Shown here piece by piece: positions 4,523 to 63,706 of a stretch of 64,000 nt of DNA (position 1 is its first letter; each line of letters begins with the position of its first letter). The position numbers and the translations under genes were made by a program. This DNA is from a virus, in IMG/VR virus record IMGVR_UViG_3300037851_000547, positions 1 to 64,000 of that record; one strand, given 5' to 3'. The notes beneath the pieces were generated by a model. It was not told the origin of the DNA, ran no database searches, and saw only the letters and a program-made list of their open reading frames with translations.

Positions 4523-4882
4523 TTATTTTTCCAGTTTGTCCTTCACAAGACCCCGGAGTCTTTCCGGAATCAAGTTGTCGAATACCATTCTGTTGAACGA
4601 TCCGTCACTCATCCTTTCGTATACGAGCGTGACCGCTGATAAATGCAGGTTTGGCTTTCTGGTGAGCGCTCTCACCAGCAGCATATCGTCCCTCATCGGA
4701 AGCAGACCTATGTGCTCTATTATATCGTGCAGGTCTTCATCGTTACGCAAGACGAACGAAAAGACTTCCACCCCATGAAGATAGTACTGCACGTCGTATC
4801 CTAGAAACCCAACGATCGGTGTCGTTCCCTGGTCGATTGCCAATCCAGGCAGCGCGCTCTGTGATGGTTGTCGCTTGTTCAC
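4523..4882 (-). CDS. hypothetical protein
   Basis: 119-aa ORF, ATGA-type 4-nt overlap with the upstream gene. Confidence 0.45.
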   Translation of the reverse strand: MNKRQPSQSALPGLAIDQGTTPIVGFLGYDVQYYLHGVEVFSFVLRNDEDLHDIIEHIGLLPMRDDMLLVRALTRKPNLHLSAVTLVYERMSDGSFNRMVFDNLIPERLRGLVKDKLEK

Positions 4883-14727: not shown

Positions 14728-16686
14728 TCAGACTCTTTCTGCGAGGAACCGCTCAAGCTCCGCAAGGTTCTTGCTGATCCTCATCCGTTTCGGGAAGCTG
14801 CTGGTGAAGTTCTTTCCGTAGCTCTTCTTCACAATTCGGTCGTCCAGCACCACTATCACTCCGCGGTCACTGATCGACCGGATGAGCCTGCCGGCTCCCT
14901 GACGGAACGTGGTGACAGCTCTCGGGATGCTGTAGCCGATGAACCAGTTGTCCCCTCGGTCCTTCGTCGCGTCGAGGATCGGGTCATCAGGCGTCGGGAA
15001 AGGCAACCTGTCGATGATCAAGCACGACAGGGTTTCTCCCGGAACGTCGATCCCAGCCCAGAACGACTCCACACCGAGCAGGACCGAGCGAACGTCAGCT
15101 CTGAACTCGGCAACGAGCTTCGTCCTTGGTCGGTCACCCTGCGCCAGGATGTTCCAGCTGGTCCGCTCTCGAAGCCTGTCCCTGGTCACGGCCAGGTTCT
15201 TGTAGGACGTGAACAGGCACAGCGTTCGCCCTTGAGCAGCCTCGACACACTGCTCGACCATGTTGGCGATCCCCTCCGCGTTGTCCGGACCAGGAGTCTC
15301 CCTTGGTACGATGATCAGCGACTGCTTCGCCAGGTCGAACGGGGAGTCCACGATCAGCATCTCCACGTCGTCTCGCCAGAGTCCAAGGTCGCCAACAAGG
15401 TGCTTCATGGTTCCTCGAACGGCGAGCGTTGCGCTGGTGAGAACCACAGTCCTGATATCCCCGAACAGGCGTTCGTATAGCGGCTTCGCAACGTCCACGG
15501 TCTTGCACAGGCTCGCATGTCCCTTGTTGTCCAGTTCGATGAAGTAGACGCAATGCTTGTTGTCGAGCTTGGTTCCCTCGAGGACCTTTTCCTTGATCTT
15601 CTCGCAGCGTTCCATCCACAGCTTCGCCTCATAGCGACGTTCATCGCTCTTTCCAGAATCCACTACGTTCGCGAAAGACTGGATGGCGTTGTTGAGCTGC
15701 GCCAGAAGGAAGCTCGGATCAACAGCGTTAGGTGTCTTCAGCCTGGCTTTGTAGTCGGCCGAGCTGCGAAAAGCCTTCAGACTGTCGAAGTAGTCTCTCG
15801 TCGCTCGCATGAGCGAGGCGCGCGTGTCCGAAAGTCCTATCAGGCGAAGTGGCGCCGCTGCCTTTCGGATCGCGTAGTATCCGAGCTTCCATCCAAAGAT
15901 ATCCCTGGCGATATCGACAGCGTTGTGCGCTTCGTCCATGACCACAGCATCGTAGTCTGGAATCACCGTGGTTCCGAAAGCCAGGTGCGTGAAGAACAGG
16001 TGATAGTTGCAAACGATGATGTTTGCTTCCTTCATTCCCTCCCTGGCCTTGTTCACGAAGCACTTGTCGTAGTTCTTGCAGCGGCGACCTTTGCACTCCT
16101 CGCTGCTTCTGGAGAGTTCCGACCAGACGTGAGGGTTCGGGATGATCTCCAGCTCGCTCTTGTCTCCGGTTTCGGTTTCGCGAGCCCAGGTCAACAGCTT
16201 GTTGAACTCGTCAACGGCAGAGAGATCGTACATCTCGACCTGGGAAGCCCTGTCGCTGTGAACCAGGTCGTAGCAGATGTAGTTGCTTCGCCCCTTCGCG
16301 AGCTTGAACTGGAAGTTGACCGGCATCACACGCTGGAGCATTGGCAGGTCTTTCTCCACCAGCTGCTCCTGGAGCGCGATATTCGCAGTCACGATGACTG
16401 CCCTCCACGGATCTTGGAACCTCTTTTCCCTAAACCCGCCCTGACCGTCCTTCACGAGCTTCGTTCGCTCGACCATAGGCGTTTTTCGGATCATTCCGAT
16501 GATCGGAACGCAGTATCCGAAGCTCTTTCCGACCCCAGGAGGACATTCGGCGAGCAAAGCGCCGCCATAAACCAGCGCTTTCGCAGTTTTCTTGGCAAAT
16601 TCCAGCTGCTGTGGCCGTGACTTGAATCCCGGTATGACTTTTGACAAAGAACCGCCGTCATCCAGCGTTTCGAAGATGATGCTCAT
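14728..16686 (-). CDS. dinG: DinG/XPD (Rad3)-family Fe-S DNA helicase
   Basis: 652 aa. Walker A CPPGVGKSFGY, DEAH box VVMDEAHNA, a four-Cys insert (CYD...CKGRRCKNYDKC), and C-terminal FWAGIDVPG and FRQGAGRLIRS motifs. Confidence 0.9.
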   Translation of the reverse strand: MSIIFETLDDGGSLSKVIPGFKSRPQQLEFAKKTAKALVYGGALLAECPPGVGKSFGYCVPIIGMIRKTPMVERTKLVKDGQGGFREKRFQDPWRAVIVTANIALQEQLVEKDLPMLQRVMPVNFQFKLAKGRSNYICYDLVHSDRASQVEMYDLSAVDEFNKLLTWARETETGDKSELEIIPNPHVWSELSRSSEECKGRRCKNYDKCFVNKAREGMKEANIIVCNYHLFFTHLAFGTTVIPDYDAVVMDEAHNAVDIARDIFGWKLGYYAIRKAAAPLRLIGLSDTRASLMRATRDYFDSLKAFRSSADYKARLKTPNAVDPSFLLAQLNNAIQSFANVVDSGKSDERRYEAKLWMERCEKIKEKVLEGTKLDNKHCVYFIELDNKGHASLCKTVDVAKPLYERLFGDIRTVVLTSATLAVRGTMKHLVGDLGLWRDDVEMLIVDSPFDLAKQSLIIVPRETPGPDNAEGIANMVEQCVEAAQGRTLCLFTSYKNLAVTRDRLRERTSWNILAQGDRPRTKLVAEFRADVRSVLLGVESFWAGIDVPGETLSCLIIDRLPFPTPDDPILDATKDRGDNWFIGYSIPRAVTTFRQGAGRLIRSISDRGVIVVLDDRIVKKSYGKNFTSSFPKRMRISKNLAELERFLAERV

Positions 16687-23918: not shown

Positions 23919-24857
23919 TCAGTTCTCCCTGTCATGTGGCTCGGCATATTCCAGGCCCAGAATCTCGTACAGATCATGCTCGTCTGTACCGCCGATCCTG
24001 ATATCGCCCCGAAAGATGCCGTACTCGTTCACCTTCAATCCTACGGCTTTCGCAATGGCCCGAAGTCTCTCGTTGTGCATCTTCGAACCAGTGAAATAGT
24101 TGAGTGCAGAGCCCCAGCAGTCGATGTCCACCACCAGGAAGTCCACATCGATCGAGAACTTTTCGCCTACGTGCCTGAATCGAATCTTCGTTTCGCCTGC
24201 CGATTCGAGCGTTCCGTACCGCTCGGCAACGCTTCTGGCTTCTTCGACAGCCAGATCTTTCCATCCAGCGTCCGCGCCGATCAGAACGTCGAGATCCTTC
24301 ACGGTCAGGCGCCGCCTTCGCCACGATCCAGCTACTTCTACCCTGTCGATGTGCGGACACTCGCCCAGGGCGAAAACCAGTCGCTCCACAAGCGAGGCTA
24401 CAGCGAACCTGGACAACCTGCCCTGCTTTTTCCTGGCGAGCCCATCCAGAATCCTGTTGTACAGTTCGGAATCTTCCAATCCGGAGTCTTCCAGAACGAA
24501 TAGCAACTCGTCCATAGTCGTGACGCCCCAGCGCGCAGCCAGCTGCTCCGCTTTCACCGGGCCGATCCCTGGCATGAAGGTGAAATCGAGCGCCGCATCG
24601 GGAAACTCGGCTTCAAGCCGCTCCAGCTTTGTACTGGTCCCGGTAGCGCACAGGTCTTGAATTACCGAATCGATTGCCTGGCCAATCCCTTCGATGGCCA
24701 GCAAGTCCAGCTCCATGACGTGCTCGGGCAGATCCTCGACGATCTTGGATGCGTCGAGGAATGCCCTGGCACGCCAGCGATCCTTCTTGAGCTGATATAG
24801 CTGGCCGATCCGAAGCAGCTTCTGGGCAACCTCGGTATTCGACAGCTTTCCTATCAT
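23919..24857 (-). CDS. polX: family X DNA polymerase (Pol beta-like)
   Basis: Helix-hairpin-helix regions (IEGIGQAI, MPGIGPVKAEQL), AGSWRRRRLTVKDLDVLI, IDVDFLVV, YFTGSKMHNERLR, and C-terminal ILGLEYAEPHDRE. ATG at 24857 overlaps the HNH stop (ATGA). Confidence 0.9.
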   Translation of the reverse strand: MIGKLSNTEVAQKLLRIGQLYQLKKDRWRARAFLDASKIVEDLPEHVMELDLLAIEGIGQAIDSVIQDLCATGTSTKLERLEAEFPDAALDFTFMPGIGPVKAEQLAARWGVTTMDELLFVLEDSGLEDSELYNRILDGLARKKQGRLSRFAVASLVERLVFALGECPHIDRVEVAGSWRRRRLTVKDLDVLIGADAGWKDLAVEEARSVAERYGTLESAGETKIRFRHVGEKFSIDVDFLVVDIDCWGSALNYFTGSKMHNERLRAIAKAVGLKVNEYGIFRGDIRIGGTDEHDLYEILGLEYAEPHDREN

Positions 24858-25336
24858 TTGTCCTTCTCTCCATTCTTTACTTGATGAACTGATGGATTTT
24901 CTCTGCATTCATCCTTCCAGATCAGGTTATTCTTGATCATGGAAATTGTTGACTTGCTCACATTATACTTCTTCGAAAGCTCTACTCCTGACGTACCATG
25001 TTTCAGATCGGTTCGTATCTTTCTAACCACATCGAAACTCAGCTTCGCGTAAGTTGCTCTACCTTTACGAAGCATATCTAAAGCATTATCTCGTTGCGAT
25101 CCGATAAAAAGATGATCTGGTCTTACACATAAAGGCGTATCGCATTTATGCAGAACCTTTCTGCCTTCTGGCACGGAACCATGTGTAAGCTCGTATGCTA
25201 CAACATGAGCCTTTTGTACTTTTCCATGCCTGCATGTAACTCCGTATCCGTTATTTCCGTGCGGAGGTCCTGTCCACAGCCAGCAAGTGGCAGTTTTATT
25301 TACTCGTTTCCAGAATCGTTCTTTCGTGAAAACCAT
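24854..25336 (-). CDS. HNH homing-type endonuclease
   Basis: CWLWTG...NGYG...AHVVAYEL...LHKCDTPLCVRPDHLF.GSQRDN is classic phage HNH_3. A helix-turn-helix-like C-terminus follows. Markedly AT-richer than the flanks. Confidence 0.85.
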   Translation of the reverse strand: MVFTKERFWKRVNKTATCWLWTGPPHGNNGYGVTCRHGKVQKAHVVAYELTHGSVPEGRKVLHKCDTPLCVRPDHLFIGSQRDNALDMLRKGRATYAKLSFDVVRKIRTDLKHGTSGVELSKKYNVSKSTISMIKNNLIWKDECRENPSVHQVKNGEKDK

Positions 25337-26212
25337 CTACAAAGTACACATTCTCGGTGACTTATCTATTCGCACCCGTAAAGCTTGAGCATGACGAAGA
25401 GCTCCGCTACGAAATAAATACCAACCTCGGAATTCAACAACAAGCTTTCCGATGTTCTCTTTCCGAAGCAGACTGGGATCTGGTGGAGCAGCCTTCATAA
25501 CCCGTTCGAGCTGCCCGTTCTTGTACAGTCCCCAGGCTCCGGTAGCTTCCGGACCCTTGTACTTTCCGCCTGGAGTCATTTCGATCCCGCACAGAACGTA
25601 GTCGCCTGTTATCCAGCGCTTGCACCTGACCCACTTATCCGTCTTTCCGTCCGAGCGAGTCGTATGGTAGGTCGATCGAAGAGGCTTCAGGACCAGGCCC
25701 TCGTATCCATCTTCGATCGCATGGTGGTAGAACGTCTCGAAGTCGTCGATCATCATCGGCACGCCGACGAAGCGAGACTCATCTCCGCGATCCAGCTGCT
25801 CGAGCAGATCGCAGACGATTCCGTTCCTGGTTCTCCACTCCTCGCCGACCAGCGTTTTCTGGCCGTGGATCACGAGCGCGTCGAACAGGTGAAACCGGCG
25901 GAAGCCGCGAAGCTTCACCTGGTCGGTTGCCCACTCCGTTGCCGCTTCGAGCTCTCCCACAATGATCGAGCCCTTCGGCAGCGGAATCGGCTGCAGGTGG
26001 ATGTCTCCCAGGTTCGAGCCACTGATCGGATCAGTAGTTCCGTCCCTGGAGTTGAGCCGGTGAGGCTGCCCGTTGGCAGGGTCGCCCACGGTAAGCTCGC
26101 ACCACATTCCGTCTACCTTGGCTTCGGCGACGTAGCCGCGGCCTTCGTAGTTGGAAAGCTGGTCCCTTTCGATATCGAGACCAGGGCCGAGATATGTTGG
26201 CGTTCTATCCAC
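25337..26212 (-). CDS. ATP-dependent DNA ligase (minimal, about 291 aa)
   Basis: Motif I AEAKVDGMW (KxDG), motif III HLFDAL, motif IV YEGLVLKP, motif V KWVRCKR. GTG at 26212 follows AAAGGATTGTAATA. The longer track ORF overlaps two other genes. Confidence 0.85.
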   Translation of the reverse strand: MDRTPTYLGPGLDIERDQLSNYEGRGYVAEAKVDGMWCELTVGDPANGQPHRLNSRDGTTDPISGSNLGDIHLQPIPLPKGSIIVGELEAATEWATDQVKLRGFRRFHLFDALVIHGQKTLVGEEWRTRNGIVCDLLEQLDRGDESRFVGVPMMIDDFETFYHHAIEDGYEGLVLKPLRSTYHTTRSDGKTDKWVRCKRWITGDYVLCGIEMTPGGKYKGPEATGAWGLYKNGQLERVMKAAPPDPSLLRKENIGKLVVEFRGWYLFRSGALRHAQALRVRIDKSPRMCTL

Positions 26213-26214
26213 TA

Positions 26215-26472
26215 TTACAATCCTTTCTCGAGGAGGTATTCCTCGATATCTTTTCTTCTGGCGTCGTTTCTCAGCTGGATCACGAACCAAGCTTCCCTGC
26301 AGGACGCGACACCAAGAAGCTCCCTGAGTCGCTGCTTTTCCCACTCGGTACGAACGGGGTTGACTGCCAGGCAGTAACACTCGTACCGAAGGTGTGCCGC
26401 CCCGAGAAAGATTGCCGCATCGGTGTAGCGCCTCTGAAGAATTTCCTGATCTCTGACAAGGAGCCTGTTCAC
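26215..26472 (-). CDS. hypothetical protein
   Basis: GTG at 26472 overlaps the upstream TGA (GTGA) and follows AAGGAGCTTGGAAA. 85 aa. Confidence 0.45.
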   Translation of the reverse strand: MNRLLVRDQEILQRRYTDAAIFLGAAHLRYECYCLAVNPVRTEWEKQRLRELLGVASCREAWFVIQLRNDARRKDIEEYLLEKGL

Positions 26473-26735
26473 TTTCCAAGCTCCTTCTTCAGAACCGTGA
26501 GCGCCTCGTTCACGGCACCGAAGACGTACTCGGCCTCGTCCAGCGTCATCCGGCCGAGCCTGCTGGGCGTCATCTGCCCGCCCTTCATGACGTGCCGCTG
26601 CACGCCGATCTTCGGCTCTCCACCGTTGTAGCGATAGACGCCTACCTGGATCATCTGGCCGTTGCCGTCCACATCGAAGCGGTACGGTGGCTGGCACAGG
26701 TGTACCAGGACATCCTTGTTGGACTGATATCCCAT
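26469..26735 (-). CDS. hypothetical protein
   Basis: ATG at 26735 follows GGAGGAACCA. 88 aa. The track N-terminal extension overlaps the upstream gene. Confidence 0.45.
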   Translation of the reverse strand: MGYQSNKDVLVHLCQPPYRFDVDGNGQMIQVGVYRYNGGEPKIGVQRHVMKGGQMTPSRLGRMTLDEAEYVFGAVNEALTVLKKELGK

Positions 26736-33284: not shown

Positions 33285-33359
33285 GGTAGCGACGGTGGGA
33301 GTTGAACCCACTACCTCCGGAGTATGAGACCGGTGTGCAACCACCTACACTTCGTCGCA
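33285..33359 (-). tRNA. tRNA with CAU anticodon (Met, or Ile2 if lysidine-modified)
   Basis: Manual cloverleaf. The acceptor is GCGACG/CGTCGC with a U1-U72 mismatch. The D stem is GUGU/GCAC. The anticodon stem CCGG(U)/(U)CCGG carries the loop CUCAUAC. The T arm is GUGGG-UUCAACU-CCCAC. The discriminator is A followed by CC. A8 is atypical. Confidence 0.7.
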
Positions 33360-45645: not shown

Positions 45646-45963
45646 CTATTTTTCGTCCAGTGGGAACTCGAAGTCCTTGGTCTGCTTGACGGCCCACAGG
45701 CAGATGATGAACGCCGGAAGCGCCCCGACCTGCTCAGCCGATGGTACCAGACCCAGCGCGCCGGCCGCCAGCGCCCCCAGAATCGTCGTCCAGAACGACA
45801 TGCACAGGTCGCAGGCCCACGGCTTGCGACCCGTTTTCGCCAGGGTCTTGCCCGGAGGAACCGCCCGAAATAGCGACACCACCGAGGCCGCCGAGAGCCC
45901 CAGGAAGACAGCGTATGTCAGAAGTGATACCACAGCGTCATACCTGAACGTACAGCTAGGCAA
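45646..45963 (-). CDS. multi-pass membrane protein (DUF1360-like?)
   Basis: 105 aa with three hydrophobic segments and a WACDLCMSFW motif. Start uncertain (TTG 45963 or GTG 45933). Confidence 0.45.
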   Translation of the reverse strand: MPSCTFRYDAVVSLLTYAVFLGLSAASVVSLFRAVPPGKTLAKTGRKPWACDLCMSFWTTILGALAAGALGLVPSAEQVGALPAFIICLWAVKQTKDFEFPLDEK

Positions 45964-48250
45964 ACGGGTTCAGCTTCTTGGCCTTGCTTTTCGCCAGGGC
46001 AACCTTGCCCTGAACCCGGCGAACCTCCTTCGGAAGCGTCTTTGGCATCTGCTTCTTGACGAACGACACGAGCTGCTTGTCGGTGGGAACCTTCGGTAGC
46101 TCGCCCTTCACCGCGGCCTTCAGGGCGGCGTCTGTGAACCGTGCTGCGTCCTTTCCAAGCGTCTTCTCGACGAGCTTCTTTCCTTCCTTGCGCAGATACC
46201 GCTCGCCAGTCTTCTGCGCCAACCGCTGACCTTCCTTCAGGATGTCCTGTGGGTTGCCGGTAGCCAGGTTCACGAACCTCGCAACATCCTCTCCTCCAGC
46301 AGCTCGCAGAGCCCTTCCGGTAAAATCTGCAGCGATGCTCGGGTCGATGCCGAGCTTGGCTATCTCGGCTCCTCCGATCTTCGACAGGGCATCGCCGGCA
46401 CCACCTCCTCCCAGCAGTGCCGTTCCGGCCGACTTGGCGTCACGCAGAAGGTTCTTCGGGTCTGTGACGCTTCTGGCGATACCGCTCGCGGTCGTCTTCA
46501 CGGCATCGTCGAACTTCGACAAGCGGAGCTTCCCCTCGGTCAGTCCAAGCTCTTTCAGTCCACCACAGACCGACTTGCTCAGGTCCTGTATTCTGTTGGC
46601 GGCTACCGCTCCTGCAGCTCCACCAGCTGGTCCTCCGAACGCGCCTCCCGCAGCTGCTCCTGCAACCTGGGTAGCTGCCTGGCCAACCGCCGAACCGATT
46701 AACTTGCAGGGCAAGCCGACAAAAATACTCCCGGCGATCTTCGCAACGGTGTTGATGCCATCCTCGACAAGTCCGATGATGTCGCCCTTGGCAAGACGCT
46801 CGAGAGTACTTCCGATGTCTCCGACAACATCGGTGATCGCCCCTCCAACATCGTTGATGACCTTGAGCACACCTTTCGGTCTTTTCGACTTCGCGTATGA
46901 GTTCTTAGCGGCTCCAAAGTACGGAGCAGCTACCAGAATCGCACCCTGAGTTTTTCCGACCGCTTTTATCGCTTCTACCAGCTGTGGTTCCCATTCTCCC
47001 CTGTTGGGAAGCTCCGGAACCAGCTCGATGAAGCTCTTCGCGTATAGGTACGCGCACTCAGCCTTCATTTCGGGAGAAGCCGCTTCTCCCCATGACTTCT
47101 TCATCGTGGATATAGGAAATGGCTCGTCGTTACAGCATCCGATGAACTTGTAGCAGTACTTCCTGTTCCTTGGTTGCGTCACGTTCACGCACCAGTTATG
47201 AGAAACGCTCTTGTCGAGTTTCGCTCCAAAGTTCTTGCACGGAGCATTGTGCTCGCCTCCCCACAGCTTCCAGTAGTCGTTTATCGAGTGGACGATGACA
47301 GATCTCTTTGCTTCCTGGATTGCCTGTCGCCTCTCTGTTACTCGCTGCTCCAGTTTTTTTCGCTGTTCTGGAGAAAGTTTCTCGAGCCTCTTTGCGGCCT
47401 CCTGTGTCTTTTGTTTCAGCCCGGTTTTTACCTTGCTGAAAAATCGGTTTGCCGCGAGGTCGAACAGCGCTTCGTAGGCTCCAAGATCGCTCGAGCTTTT
47501 CGCTTCTGGAGTGAACGACCGAAGAATCCGTATTCGACTTTTCACCTCTGCAAGCTCTACGGCTACGTGCTCTCCTTCCCGGAGTCTCCGCTCGAGGTCG
47601 GCTTGCTTCACCCGCAAGATGTTGATCTCGTCCGAAGATCCGCTTGCTTCACTCTTGGCTATTTGCTGGCGCCGGATGTCCTTGAGTCGCTCGGTGCTTG
47701 AACCGAGCTGCTTGTAGATCTTCGCGAGCGTTGCAGTCGCTGCCGGCTGTCCAGCTACTACCGTGGCGGCGATTTCCTGAGCGAGTACAGCCTGCGCTGC
47801 GGCGTTGCGCGCCGCCGCTTCGGCGACCTTGGCGACCTTGGCGTGCTGGATGGCGCTCTTTGCAAGTACTGCAGCCTGGCCGATGGAGAAAGCGTCCCCC
47901 CTGGTCTGTAGACGCTTGATGTGCGGAATGAGGCCCTGAAGCTTCCTCTTGGAGTCGTAGAAGCTCTGGGCACGGATATGCGCTTTTCGCGCCAGCTCGA
48001 CGCTCTTTTCGGCAAGAGCGGTGGCTACCTCCCGCGTCTTTCCTGTTCCGGGTTGCATCGAAGCTTCGACGACTTTCTTCATGTCGTTCTCGGAACTCGA
48101 ATCTGCTTCTTCGAGTCCAAGAAACGACCACGGAACTCTCAGCAGCGACACGTCTTCCGATGAACCGAGAAGAGCGCTGTCGATTCCGGAAAGATCTCCT
48201 CCATATCGAAGAAGATCGCTCAGCGCCGCGTTTCTGCAACAGGAAGACAT
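45956..48250 (-). CDS. large coiled-coil / Gly-Ala-rich virion-associated protein (tape-measure- or internal-protein-like)
   Basis: ATG at 48250 follows GAGGTAGACTC. 764 aa with long helical Ala/Lys-rich stretches and a GAAAGGAFGGPAGGAAGA tract. Confidence 0.55.
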   Translation of the reverse strand: MSSCCRNAALSDLLRYGGDLSGIDSALLGSSEDVSLLRVPWSFLGLEEADSSSENDMKKVVEASMQPGTGKTREVATALAEKSVELARKAHIRAQSFYDSKRKLQGLIPHIKRLQTRGDAFSIGQAAVLAKSAIQHAKVAKVAEAAARNAAAQAVLAQEIAATVVAGQPAATATLAKIYKQLGSSTERLKDIRRQQIAKSEASGSSDEINILRVKQADLERRLREGEHVAVELAEVKSRIRILRSFTPEAKSSSDLGAYEALFDLAANRFFSKVKTGLKQKTQEAAKRLEKLSPEQRKKLEQRVTERRQAIQEAKRSVIVHSINDYWKLWGGEHNAPCKNFGAKLDKSVSHNWCVNVTQPRNRKYCYKFIGCCNDEPFPISTMKKSWGEAASPEMKAECAYLYAKSFIELVPELPNRGEWEPQLVEAIKAVGKTQGAILVAAPYFGAAKNSYAKSKRPKGVLKVINDVGGAITDVVGDIGSTLERLAKGDIIGLVEDGINTVAKIAGSIFVGLPCKLIGSAVGQAATQVAGAAAGGAFGGPAGGAAGAVAANRIQDLSKSVCGGLKELGLTEGKLRLSKFDDAVKTTASGIARSVTDPKNLLRDAKSAGTALLGGGGAGDALSKIGGAEIAKLGIDPSIAADFTGRALRAAGGEDVARFVNLATGNPQDILKEGQRLAQKTGERYLRKEGKKLVEKTLGKDAARFTDAALKAAVKGELPKVPTDKQLVSFVKKQMPKTLPKEVRRVQGKVALAKSKAKKLNPFA

Positions 48251-48254
48251 GAGT

Positions 48255-48716
48255 CTACCTCGTTCTGCTCGTAGAGTATCGCTTGCAATACCGTTTCTTG
48301 CCCTTCTTTCCCCACCGTACGCACTTCCGCCGCTTGGCTGGCTCAAGGCGCATCAAACCGCAGCGCTTGGTGGTGCGACCGATCAGGGCGTCGTAGTCGG
48401 TGCTCAGGTTGCTGATCACCGCGTCGTACCTGGACCTGTTGCTCTGCATGGCTTTCAGGTTCTCGTGGGCAACGGCTGCTTCCATGAGAACCGTCTTCAG
48501 CGATCGATATGCGGTCCTGCAGTTTCCGGTGCTCTTTCTCTTGGAGAGCGCGCTCTCGGCTTCGTTCATGAGCTGGTAGGCATTCTCGACGTGGTGAAGC
48601 AGCTCGCCAGCGTGCTGCTCATCGGTGAGTCCAAGCTCTGACAGTTGCCCGCGATGACGGCGACCGCACATCGCGAGCCCTGCCAGGAGCCCCATTCCCG
48701 CAACGAGACCGTTCAT
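48255..48716 (-). CDS. membrane-anchored protein ending in one basic Cys-repeat module
   Basis: ATG at 48716. TM helix LVAGMGLLAGLAMCG. The C-terminal KRRKCVRWGKKGKKRYCKRY matches the repeat in 62237..63020. Confidence 0.5.
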   Translation of the reverse strand: MNGLVAGMGLLAGLAMCGRRHRGQLSELGLTDEQHAGELLHHVENAYQLMNEAESALSKRKSTGNCRTAYRSLKTVLMEAAVAHENLKAMQSNRSRYDAVISNLSTDYDALIGRTTKRCGLMRLEPAKRRKCVRWGKKGKKRYCKRYSTSRTR

Positions 48717-52230: not shown

Positions 52231-52443
52231 CTAGCTGTCGCAGGGACACTTTTCCATCTGGTAGTACCCGAGAACGTACTTCTCTCCCTTTCTGGTCAGA
52301 AGTACCCAGGTGTCGCGTTCCCGTATCCAGTAGACCTGCCTGGTCGATGTGGATTTCGACGGAACGTGCCTTGCTCCGATCTGCCGAAGCCTTTGCATGG
52401 CGTGAGCAGGAAGGAGCGTTTCTGTGTAGGTCGGCTTGATCAT
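52231..52443 (-). CDS. hypothetical small protein
   Basis: 70-aa ORF. Confidence 0.4.
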   Translation of the reverse strand: MIKPTYTETLLPAHAMQRLRQIGARHVPSKSTSTRQVYWIRERDTWVLLTRKGEKYVLGYYQMEKCPCDS

Positions 52444-54644
52444 TACTTTGGACAGTTCGGAATGGTAACCATGTAGTTCTTGCCGTCAGGCATCCTCTTG
52501 TTGACGAACCGCACCGTGCAGCCCTTCTCGCGGTAGAACTTTCGAACGAACTTCATCGCTCTTTCCTGATCTTTCGGAGTCATGTACTTGCCGGCAAGAC
52601 CGCTGAGAGCTTTGCGAACCTGCGGAGGCGACGGCTTCTTGCTCATGAGAGCTATCGCGGCAATAGCCAGAGCTCCGATTCCCAGGCCGAGCCCCATTCC
52701 AGGAGTGAAGAAACCGGCCTTGGTTGCAGGAGGAGTCGCATCGGGTTCCGTCTTTGCCGCCTGCTCAGGAGCAAGTACGACCTCTTCACCCTCATCGACA
52801 ACTTCGGGAGCGTAGGTGGGCTGCTGCGAGACGAACTGCTGCTGTGATGGGATGTATTGATGCTGTTGAGCAGGCTGAGCAGCCTGTGTTTCCGGCTGAT
52901 ACACAGGTTCCATTGGCGCGACTTCTTGCTGTTGCTGCTGCGTTGTCGAAACCGTTTCCTTTGCCTGCTGCTGCGTGGCCTGCTGCTTCGCCTGAGCCTC
53001 CTTGGCTCCTTGATCTGCTTTCTGCTTCGCCTTGTCCGCGGCTGCAGCTTCATCCTTCTGCTTTGCAGCTTCCTTTTCCTTCTTTATGGCTTCCTTCGCT
53101 GCCAGCTTTGCGTCTTCTATTTTCTTCTTGGCAGCAGCTTCCTTCGCCTTTTTCTTTGCGGCGTTCTTTTCCTTCTTCGCTGCTTCGATGGCCGCGGCTG
53201 CTTCCTTGGCTTTCTGCTTTGCCTTTTCCTTTTCCTTCAGCGCTGCCTTTTCCTTGGCCTTTGCCTTCGCGGCTTCTTCCTGCTTCTTTTTTGCAGCTGC
53301 CGCTTTCTCTTTTGCCTTCTTCGCAGCCTCTTCGTCAGCTTTCTTTTTCGCAGCTGCCGCGTCCTTGATTCGAGAAGCCTCGAGCTTCGCTTGCAGCTTG
53401 TCGATCAGGTCTTCCGGGGCGATCAGAACATTCTTCGCTCCGTTGTAGTACTCCGCTGACGTGAGCTTGAGCCCATGCTTCTTGACCTGATTTTGAAGAG
53501 CGTTCCTTGTGGTGTTTCCCCACTTTCCGTCGTTGTTGATTGGCTCTCCGAGTGAGATCAGCAGGTTCTGAACATCGAGTGTCAGATAAGCTTTTCCTGG
53601 CTTCTTCGTCTTCGGCTTCGGCTGTGGCGTGGGCTTCGCTGGAGCAGGAGGCGGAACCTCTGTCGGCTGCGTAGGGGTTCGGCCCTCTCTCAGCGCGACG
53701 AGAGCGTTGAACAGTCCAGGAATCAGGTCTCCTGGGTCCACGATGACATTCTGTCCCTTGTTGAAGTACTCGATGACCTTCAGCTTCCGGTTGTAGCGTT
53801 TCGCGGCGGCGACGAGAACGGATGAGGAGCCCTTGCCCCAGGCTCCGTCCACGCCGATCCTCTTTTCCTTCGGAACTCCTTCCTGCTTCTGGATGGAGTA
53901 CAGAAGAAACTGCACGTCCTTGGAAACGTAAGCGTTACCGGCATACTTCGAGCTGGGTTTGCTCACCTGCTCAGGAGCGCTTGTCATCGCCGGCCAGGTA
54001 TCAGGATCGCCAGTTGCAGCAGGCTTTTGTGTCGCCGCAGGTTTCGATTTTGCCGCAGGCTTTGCCGCAGGCTTCGCCGGTTTCGCCGCAGTAGCATCCT
54101 GACCAGGAGCTGGTGTCGGAGCGATCAAAACCTGCTTCGTTGCCGGCATCATCGACTCGCGATACAGGTGCAGGTACAGCGCACCCGGATTCAATACCGT
54201 TCCAAGAAGATTCAGGAACGCCCTCGAATTCTGGTACGGCAGCTTGTTGTCGCTCGCGAACTTCTTCAGAGCGGATTCGGTAGTCGTTCCGTACTTCTTG
54301 TCGGCCTGCTCTGGCTTCAGATACCCGAGCTTCACCAGGAACTGCTGGATGAAGATGGTGTAGACGTAGGCTGGATTCGAGTTCGCCGCCTTGGGGATAC
54401 CTGCCGACATGGTGCTGATTCCCGCGAGCAGGAATACGGCGCTCATCGGCTCGATCTTTACCTTGCTTCCGGAACGATCGCTGCGGGCATAGTAGACACC
54501 GTGCTTGAGGGCGATCCGCTTCAGTTCGTCGCGGCTCGTCGCTCCCCAGACTCCATCAGCTCCTGCAGAACCGAGATTCGCGCCGAGTGCCAGCAGTACC
54601 TTCTGAAACTCCTTCGAATCGATCGTGGTGCTGGGAAATGCCAT
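52443..54644 (-). CDS. large protein with four peptidoglycan-binding-like repeats, a Lys/Ala/Glu-rich coiled coil and a C-terminal membrane anchor
   Basis: 733 aa with four repeat starts: FQKVLLALGANL...DGVWG, IQQFLVKLGYL...KYG, VQFLLYSIQ...DGAWG, VQNLLISLGEP...DGKWG. A KKAKEAAAKK-type tract follows. TM helix GLGLGIGALAIAAIAL. Confidence 0.65.
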   Translation of the reverse strand: MAFPSTTIDSKEFQKVLLALGANLGSAGADGVWGATSRDELKRIALKHGVYYARSDRSGSKVKIEPMSAVFLLAGISTMSAGIPKAANSNPAYVYTIFIQQFLVKLGYLKPEQADKKYGTTTESALKKFASDNKLPYQNSRAFLNLLGTVLNPGALYLHLYRESMMPATKQVLIAPTPAPGQDATAAKPAKPAAKPAAKSKPAATQKPAATGDPDTWPAMTSAPEQVSKPSSKYAGNAYVSKDVQFLLYSIQKQEGVPKEKRIGVDGAWGKGSSSVLVAAAKRYNRKLKVIEYFNKGQNVIVDPGDLIPGLFNALVALREGRTPTQPTEVPPPAPAKPTPQPKPKTKKPGKAYLTLDVQNLLISLGEPINNDGKWGNTTRNALQNQVKKHGLKLTSAEYYNGAKNVLIAPEDLIDKLQAKLEASRIKDAAAAKKKADEEAAKKAKEKAAAAKKKQEEAAKAKAKEKAALKEKEKAKQKAKEAAAAIEAAKKEKNAAKKKAKEAAAKKKIEDAKLAAKEAIKKEKEAAKQKDEAAAADKAKQKADQGAKEAQAKQQATQQQAKETVSTTQQQQQEVAPMEPVYQPETQAAQPAQQHQYIPSQQQFVSQQPTYAPEVVDEGEEVVLAPEQAAKTEPDATPPATKAGFFTPGMGLGLGIGALAIAAIALMSKKPSPPQVRKALSGLAGKYMTPKDQERAMKFVRKFYREKGCTVRFVNKRMPDGKNYMVTIPNCPK

Positions 54645-57847: not shown

Positions 57848-58810
57848 TCACCTCACTGGAAGTATCTTCCTTACCCTGTCTCGCTGATGGTAAATTCCCA
57901 GGCCGAGTGCTGCTATGGCGGCTCCTCCGAGAAACCACGGCCATGAAGTCTTGTTCTGCAGATTCTCGCGGTGCCGCAGTAAAGGATCGAGCTTGCTCGA
58001 GTCGCACTTGGGATCGAGCTGGCACTCAAGAATCTTCCGATTCGTCTCTTCCTGCTGGACGCCTTTCCAGGCATCGAGAATGTCGGCCCCCTTCCACGCA
58101 GCGATACCAGCGACTCCTGTTCCGGCCACGGCGAGCCAGATCAAAGGAATGAAGAACCCTTCGAGCGCCGTACCTGCTGGAGCAGCCTTCGCTACCGCGA
58201 GCGGACCACTGGTCAAGGCCGAAATCGTGGCCGCGGCATCCATTCCAGCCTTCTTGAGCTTTCGCTCGAAAAGCCCGCGAGTGAGTGGATTGCGAAGCCT
58301 CTTCACGAGCATGGTTTGAAGCTTGGAAGCGCTCGTGTACCAGTTCTTGTACGCTTCGACGACCGGAGGAGTGGCCTTGCCTTCTTTCGAAAGCTGGGAA
58401 ACCTTCAGAGCGTAGATCCTCGCTCGCGGGATGTTGTCCGCTACGGTCTTCGCAAGAACCGTCAGCGTGTCCTTTACCGGGATCGTCAGATCCTTCACAG
58501 CCGCTTCGGCTCCCTCGTTCATGTCCTGAACGATGTAATCGGGAGAGAGCGCGGAAGGAGGCTCCATCAGTTTCTCCACGATCTGTGAAGGCTGAACCTC
58601 CGTCTTCAGCCCCTCAATGGCGCTGGCGACGTAGATGTTGGCTACCGGGATGCGCAGCTGCTTCCCGAACGCCTTCACGGCATCCACGGTGGCTCTGTTC
58701 AGAACGCCAGATGGCATTCCTGTTTCCGGGTTCACGAGTCCGTCTGGACTGGCACCCCAGATGATGAGCCTTTCCTGAAGCTCCTTGGTATCTATGATGA
58801 GGCTGGCCAT
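57848..58810 (-). CDS. membrane protein with N-terminal peptidoglycan-binding-like segment
   Basis: 320 aa. ELQERLIIWGASPDG...ATVDAVKAFGKQL. Two TM helices near the C-terminus. Confidence 0.5.
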   Translation of the reverse strand: MASLIIDTKELQERLIIWGASPDGLVNPETGMPSGVLNRATVDAVKAFGKQLRIPVANIYVASAIEGLKTEVQPSQIVEKLMEPPSALSPDYIVQDMNEGAEAAVKDLTIPVKDTLTVLAKTVADNIPRARIYALKVSQLSKEGKATPPVVEAYKNWYTSASKLQTMLVKRLRNPLTRGLFERKLKKAGMDAAATISALTSGPLAVAKAAPAGTALEGFFIPLIWLAVAGTGVAGIAAWKGADILDAWKGVQQEETNRKILECQLDPKCDSSKLDPLLRHRENLQNKTSWPWFLGGAAIAALGLGIYHQRDRVRKILPVR

Positions 58811-59936: not shown

Positions 59937-60620
59937 CTACTTGTTGACCGCTACCTTCAGCAGACCGTGAAGCCAGCACTTGACCGGGATGAAAAGCGCC
60001 TTCTCGAAGTTCGGCATCCCTACCGACTCCGGATTCGTACGCGTCCAGTCGGCCCACGCCCTGGAGTAGAACGTGAGGTAGCCGATGATCTCATGCTTCT
60101 CCGTGAGCGTCTGCGAGCGCAGAAGCTTCGGCACGGCCGCCTGCGACGGCACTCCGATGTTGGCGAAGAACGACGCGCCGAGACCGAGTGGATCTGGATA
60201 GATGCCCGGTCCGGTCAGACCGTACCCGCATCCGAACTTGATGATCGGACCCTCGGTCAGCAGCAGGTTGTTCACGTTGATGCGCAGATGGCCGTTGAAG
60301 ACGACCTGCGCCATGTCGTAGTTGGACACGGGATACGATCCCATCATCTGCTCGACGGAAGCGCCGATGCGATCGACCACCATCTCCTCGCCCATGCTCA
60401 GGCGCACGGGCTGGGTGAAGTTGGTATCGATCGGCAGCTTCCGCTCGATGTCACGGAAGAAGACGTACTGCTTGCCCGCCGTGATCGCCTCGAACCGCTC
60501 GCCATAGATCACGATGGTATCGTACTTGTCGTCTTCCCTGTACTCGGAGATGTTCAGAATGCTGCCGGAAGCAGTATCCAGGAACCGACCGGGCTGTCCT
60601 TTGATTGGTTTGAGTGCCAT
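59937..60620 (-). CDS. putative major virion (capsid-like) protein, paralog B
   Basis: 227 aa, roughly half identical to 60695..61357 (MALKPIKGQPGRFLDT..., LSMGEEMVVDR, GVPS.AA.PKL). Strong RBS AAAAAGGAGAGAGG. Confidence 0.5.
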   Translation of the reverse strand: MALKPIKGQPGRFLDTASGSILNISEYREDDKYDTIVIYGERFEAITAGKQYVFFRDIERKLPIDTNFTQPVRLSMGEEMVVDRIGASVEQMMGSYPVSNYDMAQVVFNGHLRINVNNLLLTEGPIIKFGCGYGLTGPGIYPDPLGLGASFFANIGVPSQAAVPKLLRSQTLTEKHEIIGYLTFYSRAWADWTRTNPESVGMPNFEKALFIPVKCWLHGLLKVAVNK

Positions 60621-60694: not shown

Positions 60695-61357
60695 TTACTT
60701 GCTTGCGGCGGTCTTGATGAGGCCGTGCAGGAAAGCAGTGACGGTCATGCCCGGCTCGGTAACGAGCTGGATCGGCGTGATCGAGGCGAGTGAGACGTTG
60801 GGCTCCGATAGAATCCAGTCGCGGTTCTGGAAGATCAGGTAGCCGACCATCTCGTGCTTGCTGGTGAGCGTCTGGGTCTTGACGAGCTTCGCCGCCGCTG
60901 CGGTCGAGGGCACGCCCACGCCGAAGTTCGGGGTGCTCGGCGAGTAGCCGCCGACGCCGTATCCGCTCGGGAACTTGAACGCCGGCCCTTCGATGAGCAG
61001 CAGCGCGTTCACGTCCACGCGGAAGAACGAGCTTTCGATGACGCGCAGGAAGTCTACTCCGGTGGAATCGACCTCGTGTCCGCTGATGACGTGACGGGGG
61101 TACAGGCCCACTCGATCCACGACCATCTCCTCGCCCATCGACAGGCGAGAGGGCTGCGTGAAGTTGCAGTCCACAGGACGCTTCTGCGCGATGTCCCGGA
61201 AGAAGATGTACTGCGAACCGAACTCGATCGCGACCTCGCTCGAGATGAAGATCGAATCGTACTTGTCGTCTTCGCGGTACTCGGCGATGTTGAGAACCTG
61301 ACCGCTTCCGGTGTCCAGAAAGCGACCCGGCTGTCCCTTGATTGGTTTGAGTGCCAT
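60695..61357 (-). CDS. putative major virion (capsid-like) protein, paralog A
   Basis: 220 aa. See paralog B. RBS CAGGAGATACGAA. Confidence 0.5.
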   Translation of the reverse strand: MALKPIKGQPGRFLDTGSGQVLNIAEYREDDKYDSIFISSEVAIEFGSQYIFFRDIAQKRPVDCNFTQPSRLSMGEEMVVDRVGLYPRHVISGHEVDSTGVDFLRVIESSFFRVDVNALLLIEGPAFKFPSGYGVGGYSPSTPNFGVGVPSTAAAAKLVKTQTLTSKHEMVGYLIFQNRDWILSEPNVSLASITPIQLVTEPGMTVTAFLHGLIKTAASK

Positions 61358-61552: not shown

Positions 61553-62062
61553 CTAGAAGAGGCTGGTCAGCTCGTAGGGCGGGACCGTCCTGATCTCCGC
61601 TTCACCCATGCCGAAGAGGTCTTCGTCCGCACCCTGTCCCAGGCCGGTCAGAAGGGTCTCCTCGTCCACGACCGCATCGCCGAGTCCCAGCAGATCTTCC
61701 TCGGTGATGTCGCCTTCCTCCAGCGACACCTTCTGGTTGATCATCTGGCCGACCAGCGTTGCCAGTCCCTGTCCCACCAATCCTGCCGACAGACCGGCCG
61801 CAGCGGGGCGGCTGAAGTCGTACAGGAGGTACCCGCCGATCAGTCCGGCGGCGATGGACGCAGCGGCCCTCCAGGTGGGAGTGGTCAGGAACGGGATCTT
61901 CTTGAGACCCCAGCTGCCCAGCAGCATTCCTGCCCCGGCCGACCCGGCGGCGACCACAGCGTCAGCACTGAGAGGAAACGTGATCGGCGGAAAATCCAGA
62001 CCGTCCCACATCTCCTCGAGATCCATGTCCTCGATCGGAGGATATTCGATGCTCTTTCCCAT
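61553..62062 (-). CDS. acidic membrane protein
   Basis: ATG at 62062 follows GAGAGGAATGACA. Gly/Ala-rich hydrophobic segments (AVVAAGSAGAGMLLGSW, AAASIAAGLIGGYLL). Confidence 0.45.
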   Translation of the reverse strand: MGKSIEYPPIEDMDLEEMWDGLDFPPITFPLSADAVVAAGSAGAGMLLGSWGLKKIPFLTTPTWRAAASIAAGLIGGYLLYDFSRPAAAGLSAGLVGQGLATLVGQMINQKVSLEEGDITEEDLLGLGDAVVDEETLLTGLGQGADEDLFGMGEAEIRTVPPYELTSLF

Positions 62063-62236
62063 TGTCATTCCTCTCTTTCTCTGTCCGATTGATACTGAAA
62101 GTTGCTTCTCTCTGCACAGTTCCCTGAACGACTTTCGAGCGGAACCGAGAGGTCCATACGCCCAGCATTGGCAGTCACCCGCCATGTTGGAGCGTACAGC
62201 GATGCACTCTCTTGACCCGTCGAACGTCATCGAGAT

Positions 62237-62782
62237 CTACCTGGTCCTGCGCTTTGCGGTCCGACGCTTCCGACGCAGCCCGAAGAGGCCAGCCATCGTG
62301 ACGCCTCCCGAGCGGCTCTTGGCGTAGGACTTGCAGTAACGCTTGCCCTTCTTGTTGATGCCGAAGCTGACGCACCGGCGCTTCTTGCCCTTGAGCGGGG
62401 AGGCCTTGCGCTTGCCCCTGGTTCCCGAGTACTTGCGGCAGATCTTTTTGCCGGCGCTGCTGCGGCCCCACCGGAGGCACGAGCGCTTGCGCGTCTTCAC
62501 GCTCTTGCGCTTCAATGCTGCCCGTGCGGAGATGCTCCTCCACTTCCGGCAGACCTTGCGGCCTCCGCTCTTGCCGTACTTCGCGCAGACCTTCTGAGCC
62601 CGCTTCTTGGTGGTGCTGCGCTCGTAGAACTTGCGCTTGATGCCCGCCTTGCGGCGTCCGCTCGGACTACCTTCACCGGCTGCGAACTTCGCGCAGACCT
62701 TTCTGCCTCCCTTACCGGTCTTGTACCTCACGCAACGACGGAGGCGGCCTTCCAGGGAGCCCATATCGGTATCCGTGGCCAT
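62237..62782 (-). CDS. highly basic protein with four two-cysteine repeats (C-x4-G-x6-7-K-x-C-x2-aromatic)
   Basis: The four repeats are RRCVRYKTGKGGRKVCAKF, QKVCAKYGKSGGRKVCRKW, RSCLRWGRSSAGKKICRKY and RRCVSFGINKKGKRYCKSY. RBS AAAGGAGAACGAAG. Confidence 0.6.
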   Translation of the reverse strand: MATDTDMGSLEGRLRRCVRYKTGKGGRKVCAKFAAGEGSPSGRRKAGIKRKFYERSTTKKRAQKVCAKYGKSGGRKVCRKWRSISARAALKRKSVKTRKRSCLRWGRSSAGKKICRKYSGTRGKRKASPLKGKKRRCVSFGINKKGKRYCKSYAKSRSGGVTMAGLFGLRRKRRTAKRRTR

Positions 62783-62843
62783 CTTCGTTCTCCTTTGTAG
62801 ATTCCTCTCTTTCAGCTCACGGAGGCCCCATGCCCCCGCAGCG

Positions 62844-63020
62844 CTAGACCTTGCGGTACTTCCGACAGACCTTGCGTCCGTCCTTGGTACGCCCCCACTT
62901 GATGCAGATCCGCTTCCGACGGGTTCGGCGAGCTGCGAACTGCAAGCAGACTTTCTTGCCGCTCCTTCGACCGAACTTGATGCAGATGCGCTTCTTCGTC
63001 CTTCGCTTCTTCGTTGCCAT
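62844..63020 (-). CDS. 58-aa highly basic protein with two copies of the same Cys repeat
   Basis: ATG at 63020 follows AGGAGAAGTC. The two repeats are KRICIKFGRRSGKKVCLQF and KRICIKWGRTKDGRKVCRKY. 27 of 58 residues are K/R by my count. Confidence 0.55.
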   Translation of the reverse strand: MATKKRRTKKRICIKFGRRSGKKVCLQFAARRTRRKRICIKWGRTKDGRKVCRKYRKV

Positions 63021-63028: not shown

Positions 63029-63706
63029 CTATGGTACGTCGTAGTCCTTGACCTTCTTCAACATGCTCCTCGGTGGATGCCATCCTGGCGCTTTGTCCAT
63101 GCTGGCGTCAAGAGAGTACCAGGTGTTCGGACCTCGCGGAGGTAGCCCCACCAGAAGGAAGATGTGGTTGTAGTCGGACGAGTCTCGCGTCTGCACGATG
63201 CGAACCTTGATCGGGTACCCTATAGACTGTAGCGCCGACCCGAGCGTGATGGAATAGTCGTCGCAGTCCCCGCCACCGAACTCCAGGGTGCGCTTCGGAG
63301 ACTGGAAGGTATCGATCTGATGAATGTCCCTCACGTACCGGACATTCTGGCGGATCGCCTCGAAGACTTGTCGCACCTCTCCCCACCAGTCGCGCTCTGG
63401 CACACACCATCCTCGACCGCACTTCTGACTGACGGCCTTGACGGCAAAGGCCCGCACTCGCGGGTCTTTCCTCCCTTTCTGGATGGTATTGATGACGTGC
63501 CTGACCCGGCTGTCGATGTTGCCGACGCTGCGGATCGTGGCCTTGTAGCCCCCCTGTCCGTTCGGCTTCGAAATCTCCTGAACCGTGGGTAAATCAGGGA
63601 GATTCTTCGAGAATCCGAGGTCTATCGAAGATCCAAGCGCCTTCCTGAGCTCCGAGAACCCAGCAATCAGAGAGCCCAGGCCTACAACAAGGTGAGGTAC
63701 GTTCAC
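63029..63706 (-). CDS. transglutaminase-like cysteine protease with N-terminal anchor
   Basis: FGGGDCDDYSITLGSALQSIGYP (Cys), NHIFLLV (His) and YSLDAS (Asp) are arranged as in the transglutaminase core. GTG start with no obvious RBS. Confidence 0.7.
   Translation of the reverse strand: MNVPHLVVGLGSLIAGFSELRKALGSSIDLGFSKNLPDLPTVQEISKPNGQGGYKATIRSVGNIDSRVRHVINTIQKGRKDPRVRAFAVKAVSQKCGRGWCVPERDWWGEVRQVFEAIRQNVRYVRDIHQIDTFQSPKRTLEFGGGDCDDYSITLGSALQSIGYPIKVRIVQTRDSSDYNHIFLLVGLPPRGPNTWYSLDASMDKAPGWHPPRSMLKKVKDYDVP

Follow-up and report, generated by a model that had tools for sequence, protein, structure and literature searches.

A very rare two-cysteine hairpin module in polycationic proteins encoded beside jelly-roll capsid-like genes of a metagenomic phage

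Bacterial double-stranded DNA (dsDNA) viruses are generally thought to pack naked DNA by protein-free, motor-driven packaging, and protein-condensed genomes are known from eukaryotic and archaeal jelly-roll viruses. One of the known condensers, protamine P1, also contains cysteines that are thought to form cross-links. Small basic proteins are found as well near the capsid genes of tailless membrane-containing viruses; two of them, P23-77 VP11 and PRD1 P30, are minor capsid proteins that reportedly bridge membrane and shell, and are said to be helical or extended, poor in cysteine and far less charged than the proteins described below. Condensing polycations are associated with packaged dsDNA, and some of them are enclosed by an inner lipid layer that a jelly-roll shell surrounds (PMC3281028, PMC8459092). 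Two such virus groups combine an icosahedral shell with a lipid layer beneath it: the Portogloboviridae, whose core is a nucleoprotein (PMC8459092), and the chloroviruses, whose particles contain basic proteins that bind DNA (PMC3281028). The subject of this report is a pair of adjacent genes, p181 and p58, in a 64,000-nucleotide stretch of viral DNA (positions 1 to 64,000 of IMG/VR record IMGVR_UViG_3300037851_000547), called the window below. Both genes encode proteins built from a two-cysteine unit of about 20 residues.

Extreme Lys/Arg content and small size are shared by p181 and p58 with the condensing polycations, that is, protamine P1, adenovirus VII and mu, baculovirus P6.9, the chlorovirus basic proteins and the Portogloboviridae core. 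No similarity to these in sequence or fold was found, and the two proteins differ from them in the regular two-Cys hairpin repeat, the aromatic residues, the fusions of the unit to membrane proteins and the bacterial host. No match to the protamine, adenovirus core or P6.9 families was obtained in Pfam, PHROGs and NCBIfam at E ≤ 1 or in PDB at E ≤ 10. VP11 and P30 share with p181 and p58 the small basic size and the nearness to capsid genes, and are set apart by the Cys-pair hairpins and higher charge of the latter; no homology of the VP11/P30 type was detected by tblastn against 50,697 GenBank phage records or in PHROGs. By analogy, the closest functional counterparts of p181 and p58 would be condensers of the protamine or adenovirus-core kind, or the basic cement proteins found in membrane-containing phages. 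A small polycationic virion protein is a known kind of thing; the module itself is new.

The two-cysteine unit and its distribution

Gene p181 (62237..62782, minus strand) encodes 181 residues that comprise four two-Cys hairpin units and a linker that is conserved and unstructured, as judged from the open reading frame (ORF), its homologues, a structural model and the Shine-Dalgarno (SD) site. The protein contains 33 Lys and 33 Arg (66/181, 36%), five Asp/Glu and eight Cys, at positions 17/30, 66/78, 102/115 and 137/150, and has a net charge of +61. Unit 1 (62684..62734, minus strand; C17..F33, CVRYKTGKGGRKVCAKF) is the most conserved unit type, with LEGRLR[HR] just before it. It is followed on the same strand by unit 2 (62540..62587; C66..W81, CAKYGKSGGRKVCRKW), unit 3 (62429..62479; C102..Y118, CLRWGRSSAGKKICRKY) and the variable unit 4 (62324..62374; C137..Y153, CVSFGINKKGKRYCKSY), which is absent or shifted to the C-terminus in some p181 homologues. 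Gene p58 (62844..63020, minus strand; ATG 63020, stop 62844) encodes 58 residues with units at 62937..62984 and 62856..62906, four Cys at positions 13/25 and 39/52 and a net charge of +26; the composition count of 27 Lys or Arg among the 58 residues (47%) agrees with that of the first-pass annotation. It is a lineage-specific extra copy, not present in the syntenic loci L001, L004 and L010.

The two proteins begin with MATDTDMGSLEGR and MATKKRR, respectively, and examination of their N-termini and hydrophobicity revealed neither a signal peptide nor a hydrophobic segment. The p181 ATG is preceded at 8 nt by AAGGAG and the p58 ATG at 6 nt by AGGAG; these SD sites are comparable in strength to those of the neighboring capsid-like genes. 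Both genes were called by an independent gene caller on a second assembly of the region (L007). A promoter and terminator scan around them gave nothing above chance. The convincing genes of the window are all on the minus strand.

The consensus of the unit is K-R-x-C-[VLI]-[RK]-[YWF]-[GK] … G-[RK]-[KR]-V-C-[RA]-K-[YFW]. Each strand of the predicted hairpin has one invariant Cys, Lys/Arg flanks and then an aromatic residue, and each Cys pair of p181 and p58 has the same sequence surroundings. A six-frame regular-expression scan of the window returned seven units (four in p181, two in p58 and one in the membrane protein mem153) and one junk match in a non-coding frame. In 100,000 composition-preserving shuffles each of p181 and p58, the unit and half-motif counts of the real proteins were never attained, and shuffled proteins had about 0.001 units on average; the repeat is therefore not a by-product of composition. 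Scan and shuffles bear out the first-pass annotation, which had described four units in the 181-residue and two in the 58-residue protein. The further unit that it had seen at the end of mem153 (48255..48716) was located at 48276..48323 (KRRKCVRWGKKGKKRYCKRY).

Three trivial origins were rejected. A composition artefact was ruled out by the shuffle test, and a wrong-frame ORF by the homologues, the SD sites and the independent gene calls. A recent DNA tandem repeat was ruled out because the unit copies are 66-85% alike over 25-29 nt at the DNA level, which points to duplications that are old and have been preserved in the protein sequence.

A word-indexed search of 5.8 billion proteins yielded 13 clusters of p181 relatives, all metagenomic and all unnamed. 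C17, C30, C66, C78, C102 and C115 are invariant in p181 and its homologues (14 sequences). A unit profile of 30 columns, built from 39 units, was run exhaustively against 1.84 billion representative proteins and gave 29 matches at E ≤ 1e-3, two of which are unrelated low-complexity repeats, leaving about 27 true carriers. These are the p181 family, free-standing single units of 31-49 residues (e.g., MARKKKHCTKFGRGKKGRKVCRKWSTGRKKK), two-unit proteins of 55-67 residues, three-unit proteins of 93-110 residues, and P0113, a protein of 270 residues that is 60% identical to mem153 and has kept its one C-terminal unit. A homologue search with mem153 had returned only mem153 itself; P0113 came from the exhaustive profile search. 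In all, 89 units were counted over 36 proteins, with one unit in 10 proteins, two in 10, three in six, four in nine and five in one. Both Cys are retained in every unit, and their spacing is 13 in 57 units, 12 in 18, 15 in six, 14 in four, 11 in three and 9 in one.

No family was found in Pfam, PHROGs or NCBIfam at E ≤ 1 for p181 or p58, save a non-significant match to Zn_ribbon_RRN7 (E = 0.72), nor was one found there for p225, the capsid-like proteins and most structural neighbors. Sequence-profile searches of PDB with the unit, the whole p181 family or the capsid-like family gave nothing significant, and the unit and whole-family profiles had no match at E ≤ 10. A Foldseek search of PDB with the p181 model returned noise only (E > 4). 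Relatives of the p181 family were not found in GenBank phages (tblastn, 50,697 records), IMG/VR or GTDB genomes. As no family library or PDB entry matches and the carriers are so few, the module is real, autonomous, very rare and unnamed; the two-cysteine hairpin unit is a new protein module that belongs to no known family tested. The first-pass annotation had called the repeat unrecognised and had named conservation of its cysteines as a check, and both points are supported. A variant Cys-pair motif, KKxC…SGPxKGxxKKGC-x-[YW]-GRG, was observed at locus L014. It was missed by both the regular expression and the profile, so the module family may extend beyond the 27 carriers found.

A model of p181 was made with AlphaFold2 (AF2) from an alignment of 14 sequences. 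Its mean predicted local distance difference test score (pLDDT) is 63, the low overall confidence being due to disordered linkers and termini. Each unit is modeled as a two-stranded beta-hairpin (residues 17-22/28-33, 63-72/75-84, 102-107/113-118 and 137-142/148-153). Averaged in 10-residue blocks, the pLDDT over the hairpin regions ranges from about 53 (residues 11-20) to 89 (residues 71-80), with about 76-89 over residues 61-90 around unit 2. The AF2 strand limits imply that each Cys is set against the aromatic residue of the opposite strand, which would put the two Cys of a unit on opposite faces. With Cys opposite Cys, the other possible register, the hairpin would be amphipathic, with a cationic face and a hydrophobic/aromatic face, and compatible with a disulfide. 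A mutual-information covariation test of the two registers gave a signal dominated by the difference between unit-1-type and other units.

Like the unit, zinc ribbons and knuckles bear Cys, their metal ligands, on beta-hairpins. Neither a CxxC nor a CPxCG knuckle occurs in any unit, the two Cys of a hairpin are 11-15 apart (9 in one of 89 units), and the E = 0.72 match to Zn_ribbon_RRN7 compares with a 27-bit cut-off. Since some proteins have one, three or five units and the CxxC knuckle is missing, an obligate in-chain Cys4 zinc site is unlikely as the general rule. Possible roles of the cysteines are a disulfide staple, inter-unit disulfides or metal bridges, in which zinc may be shared between hairpins or between chains.

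Between units 1 and 2 lies the non-repeat linker of p181 (62600..62680, minus strand; residues 35-61), with the pattern AG-x-G-x-P-x-GR-xx-A-x-I...F-E-S-T. It is disordered in the AF2 model (pLDDT < 50 for residues 41-57) and conserved in the homologue alignment, in which A35, G36, G38, P40, G42, R43, A46, I48, F52, E54, S56 and T58 are invariant. Its motif P-x-G-R-[KR]-[KR]-A is the most conserved element of the p181 family, and the piece P-K-G-R-K-K-A recurs in the relative at L018, where the capsid-like protein is only 31% identical. An invariant x-A-G-x-G motif was also noted directly after unit 1 in this basic protein, which adjoins a transglutaminase-like gene.

Conserved gene order and membrane-protein partners

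The genes lie in a block of morphogenesis type that is conserved in every related locus retrieved, with the order integrase, acidic protein of 616-679 residues, transglutaminase-like (TGase-like) protein, basic Cys protein, p225, one to three paralogues of about 220 residues, p196, p150 and large proteins. Gene order was compared over the loci L001, L004, L005 and L010, the loci L014 and L017 from metagenome-assembled genomes (MAGs), and L015 and L018, whose contigs end before the TGase position; L016 was scanned by regular expression and BLAST only. The succession of TGase-like protein, basic Cys protein, acidic Gly-rich membrane protein and jelly-roll protein holds down to 27-31% identity of the capsid-like protein. 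The position of p181 is taken by a two-unit protein of 55 residues at L005 (capsid-like protein 27% identical) and by a three-unit protein of 93 residues at L010. The first-pass annotation had placed the genes between a transglutaminase-like gene and capsid-like genes, an order that stands, with the addition that an acidic membrane protein of 225 residues intervenes between p181 and the capsid-like genes.

Lineage relatives were found in MAGs of Kofleriaceae, Gammaproteobacteria and Verrucomicrobiota. In the Kofleriaceae MAG a small ORF with RRCSAFKKVYSPAFGKYVKRCRSF is located directly upstream of a p225-like gene; one Kofleriaceae copy lies inside a 238-kb contig and is therefore probably a provirus. 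At L014 (6666..8510), from the Gammaproteobacteria MAG, the TGase-like and membrane genes are separated by three genes for lysine-rich proteins that contain KKGC…KKGC pairs. In the Verrucomicrobiota MAG the orthologue retains a single Cys pair and the conserved linker; after these comes a lysine-rich tail devoid of Cys, AKAAAKPKKRASSKKKASRKGGAKRK, reminiscent of those of histone H1. As hairpins are swapped for such a tail in this relative, bulk positive charge is the conserved property. What is conserved throughout is a trio: a strong polycation, the partnership with an acidic membrane protein, and the linker motif.

The constant downstream partner, p225 (61553..62230, minus strand), has three Gly/Ala-rich hydrophobic segments, a net charge of -14 and an acidic C-terminal tail of 60 residues with 16 Asp/Glu, two Lys/Arg and repeated LxGLG-like motifs. 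Two starts are candidates. The long form begins at ATG 62230, 6 nt after the p181 stop, with a weak SD site, and adds a conserved four-Cys domain within the N-terminal 40 residues (62111..62212, including CxC; RECIAVRSNMAGDCQCWAYGPLG…C39) that is like unit 1 of p181 and is also present at L001, L004 and L015. The gene caller chose the form of 169 residues (ATG 62062), which has the better SD site. In hhalign the N-terminal Cys domain aligns to unit 1 of the p181 family with E = 0.045, not significant, and might possibly be an eighth, degenerate unit. At L018, the only relative from IMG/VR, the protein in the p225 position, which has a like, Gly-rich architecture, opens with a clear unit, RCIRKKRVRSAATGKMVERCAKF. 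This unit is 46% identical to unit 1 of the p181 family over 26 columns (hhalign, E = 0.003 in a single comparison), and homology of the whole protein to p225 is not significant (BLASTP E = 0.07).

Units are thus fused to two different membrane proteins, the L018 p225-like protein and mem153. The latter (minus strand, 153 residues) consists of an N-terminal hydrophobic anchor, RRHR, a helical region and the C-terminal unit. The longest ORF of a 796-residue gene (45956..48346, TTG start) overlaps the 3' end of mem153, including the hairpin unit, and the true start of the 796-residue gene is probably further downstream.

The constant upstream neighbor (63029..63706, minus strand) encodes a transglutaminase-fold cysteine peptidase-like protein with an N-terminal hydrophobic anchor, assigned by Pfam and synteny. 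It matches Transglut_core (Pfam, E = 8.7e-7) and Peptidase_C93/BTLCP (2e-3), with a weak NCBIfam match to LapG, and the Cys-His-Asp motifs read from its sequence are apparently intact (GDCDD…NHIF…LDAS). On the other side of p225 are two capsid-like paralogues of about 220 residues (60695..61357 and 59937..60620, minus strand) with a predicted jelly-roll fold (AF2; pLDDT 85, predicted template modeling score 0.81). Their best fold matches in PDB, all weak, are the single-jelly-roll capsid proteins of the internal-membrane viruses SPV1 (top), SH1, HHIV-2, HCIV-1 and P23-77 (VP17) and the double jelly roll of PBCV-1; those in BFVD are generic jelly rolls. The capsid-like protein occurs in 82 metagenomic clusters. 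A search of IMG/VR with its family gave a single distant contig, and the 50,697 GenBank phage records contained no match. A strong hydrophobic segment was detected in at least eight of the 24 ORFs between 43.9 and 63.7 kb, and a weaker one in the TGase-like protein, p225 and mem153.

In the relatives, the TGase-like gene is preceded by a gene for an acidic protein of 616-679 residues (L001, 7426..9276; L010, 3109..5148) with an MMPMMMMMMMM run and a strongly acidic C-terminus. This gene would lie beyond the end of the window, and only its 3' part could fall in 63.7-64 kb. No Walker A motif, family match or PDB match was found in the protein, whose composition resembles that of a scaffolding or internal protein. 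Two large proteins of the structural block (52443..54644 and 57848..58810) contain PG_binding_1 domains and hydrophobic segments and are possibly virion-borne cell-wall enzymes; the 733-residue protein additionally contains a stretch resembling an endolysin and weakly matches a tape-measure protein.

Candidate functions of p181 and p58

We tentatively prefer, at somewhat less than an even chance, to see in p181 and p58 a virion polycation that offsets the charge of the genome and ties it to the viral membrane. In this proposal p181 and p58 would be abundant structural polycations in the virion of undescribed temperate phages of about 80 kb that are rich in membrane proteins and have a jelly-roll shell. 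The working part would be the autonomous beta-hairpin of about 20 residues, several of which are strung together by flexible basic linkers, and hairpins and linkers would bind a polyanion by charge. This polyanion would most likely be the packaged dsDNA genome, which would be neutralised and compacted and be held at the surface of the viral membrane via the acidic p225 and the unit-bearing membrane proteins (mem153 and the L018 p225-like protein). The cysteines might stiffen or cross-link the hairpins, by disulfides after release or by metal bridges between hairpins.

A Lys+Arg content of 36-47% with almost no acidic residues is in the compositional range of nucleic-acid condensers. The modularity of the hairpins, the synteny and the strong SD sites count for a polycation, and the free variation in unit number together with the lysine-rich tail that replaces hairpins in one lineage favors DNA as its ligand. 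The protein-bound genomes of Portogloboviridae and chloroviruses are a precedent, SPV1 being the top fold match of the neighboring gene. The linker motif recalls the P-R-G-R hooks that bind the minor groove; an AT-hook proper (R-G-R-P core with basic flanks) was not recovered, as the linker lacks a second Pro and no Pfam AT_hook match was seen at E ≤ 1. The zinc- or disulfide-stabilised DNA condenser proposed by the first-pass annotation stays plausible. The fuller proposition, a genome-condensing nucleoprotein of a new lineage of tailless, internal-membrane, jelly-roll bacterial viruses of about 80 kb, with a Cys-cross-linked or metal-bridged, chromatin-like core tethered to the membrane, appears on the whole unlikely in that complete form.

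Several observations weigh against this preference. The Cys-to-aromatic pairing of the AF2 register leaves an intra-hairpin disulfide unsupported by the model. The PDB fold matches of the capsid-like protein are weak (E 2e-3 or worse, template modeling score ≤ 0.47). No convincing Walker A motif of a packaging ATPase (FtsK/HerA type) was recognised in the structural block or in the upstream proteins of 616 and 459 residues at L001, about 16 kb of the source contig lying outside the window; the only Walker-A-like match in the block is an atypical GPRRYGKS at window position 50384. Neither p181 nor p58 has a signal peptide, and the fused units, which adjoin the positively charged flanks of the anchors, are predicted to be cytoplasmic. 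By inference from PRD1-type assembly, the cytoplasmic side of the membrane would be turned toward the capsid rather than the DNA. Conserved aromatics seldom occur in dsDNA condensers and are characteristic of membrane-interface binders.

Several of these observations lend themselves to a membrane-capsid cement, which we consider possible but doubtful, and an equally serious alternative because units are fused to membrane proteins on the predicted cytoplasmic side and an acidic membrane protein is the constant neighbor. At the outer face of the internal membrane the hairpins would attach to anionic lipid head groups, to the acidic p225 tail or to both, and would connect this face with the jelly-roll shell, nucleating or sizing capsid assembly, a role of the kind reported for VP11 and P30. 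The RRHR after the anchor of mem153, the very basic N-terminal unit that precedes the first hydrophobic segment of the L018 p225-like protein, the constant adjacency to capsid-like genes, the conserved Lys/Arg combined with Trp, Tyr or Phe that is typical of interfacial membrane binders, and the missing signal peptides all agree with it, and the many ORFs with hydrophobic segments fit a membrane-containing virion. However, the Lys+Arg content is far above the need of a lipid tether, the lysine-rich tail in place of hairpins in one relative suggests bulk charge neutralisation rather than a fitted capsid contact, and the tblastn and PHROGs searches gave no homology to known cement proteins. Neutralisation of DNA and cementing are not mutually exclusive.

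Antimicrobial beta-hairpin peptides stapled by disulfides, such as tachyplesin, arenicin, thanatin and protegrin, resemble the unit in being cationic, about 20 residues long and equipped with aromatic residues and with Cys on either strand. A membrane-active peptide of the tachyplesin/arenicin type that would disrupt the host envelope at lysis or entry is quite improbable. The short cationic two-stranded hairpin is there, in the AF2 model and in the single-unit proteins of 31-36 residues, and the free-standing single units match such peptides in size, charge, Cys pair and predicted hairpin. One of these, a gene for 31 residues (L008, 822..917), has another neighborhood, next to a membrane-anchored PG_binding_1 protein, with small membrane proteins, and upstream of a GH18 enzyme; no capsid-like gene was detected on its 4.9-kb contig. 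The units of p181 and p58, by contrast, stand in tandem with linkers in a phage structural block, inside the capsid-gene block and not beside the endolysin-like protein (52443..54644). No secreted precursor with signal peptide and pro-region was found in p181 or p58, the multi-unit form of 181 residues has a conserved non-repeat linker, and the AF2 register does not place the cysteines opposite each other.

A substrate of the TGase-fold enzyme is very improbable as an explanation in its own right. In this case p181 would be cut at x-A-G-P-G or in the linker into single hairpins, or its lysines would be cross-linked to glutamines of the shell; the cleavage of adenovirus pre-mu by adenain is the model for such processing. 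The TGase-like gene is always directly upstream, its catalytic motifs look intact, it weakly resembles the LapG/BTLCP proteases, the linker is conserved more than the hairpins, and the existence of single-unit genes implies that a single hairpin is functional. All this is pure context, however; the anchored enzyme could equally be a cell-wall peptidase for entry, and processing would modify the polycation and cement proposals and not compete with them. A non-structural, zinc-finger-type nucleic-acid-binding regulator or chaperone is highly improbable: the regularly spaced Cys, the very weak Zn_ribbon_RRN7 match and the four conserved Cys of the p225 N-terminal domain, including CxC, recall one, but the units lack CxxC and CPxCG knuckles, counts of one, three and five cannot fill in-chain Cys4 sites, and the extreme charge, the disordered linkers and the location in a late structural-type operon speak otherwise.

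The phage lineage and its significance

The window is part of a metagenomic contig of 80,211 bp, and relatives are on contigs of 76-86 kb. An ordinary phage replication and recombination set was identified that comprises a DinG/XPD-type helicase, a Sak4-like annealing protein, a Holliday-junction resolvase, a polymerase exonuclease subunit and Pol X. Further genes encode an ATP-dependent ligase, a PD-(D/E)XK nuclease, methyltransferases and a ParB-like helix-turn-helix protein. Four of these form an unusual DNA-repair-like set (23919..24908, 25337..26479, 7464..8591 and 14728..16686), made up of the family-X polymerase (Pol beta thumb), the ligase, the nuclease and the helicase, which has 13 Cys. 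A single tRNA-Met (CAT; 33285..33359, minus strand) lies among early and middle genes. No informative match was obtained for a P-loop protein (4879..6003), and no terminase, portal or HK97 capsid protein was matched in the parts examined.

The lineage looks undescribed, with genomes of about 77-86 kb, an integrase and one to three jelly-roll capsid-like genes. It probably consists of temperate phages with a tailless, membrane-containing particle. The Helvetiavirae-like group has two vertical single-jelly-roll capsid proteins and an internal membrane; here there are one to three jelly-roll paralogues, with weak fold matches.

If p181 and p58 do condense the genome, no protamine-like packaging system would have been described before them in bacterial dsDNA viruses. 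A conserved polycation beside capsid and membrane genes would represent either another packaging solution for a large genome in a membrane-lined shell or a new membrane-shell cement, and it would open to test the question of whether dedicated condensing proteins serve genome packaging in any bacterial dsDNA virus. The unit is a compact, autonomous and very rare mini-fold, with its roughly 27 carriers among 1.84 billion representative proteins, and could serve as a minimal polyanion binder. The finding also flags a phage lineage almost entirely missed by current viral catalogues, and this nearly invisible host lineage of the module may be the larger discovery.

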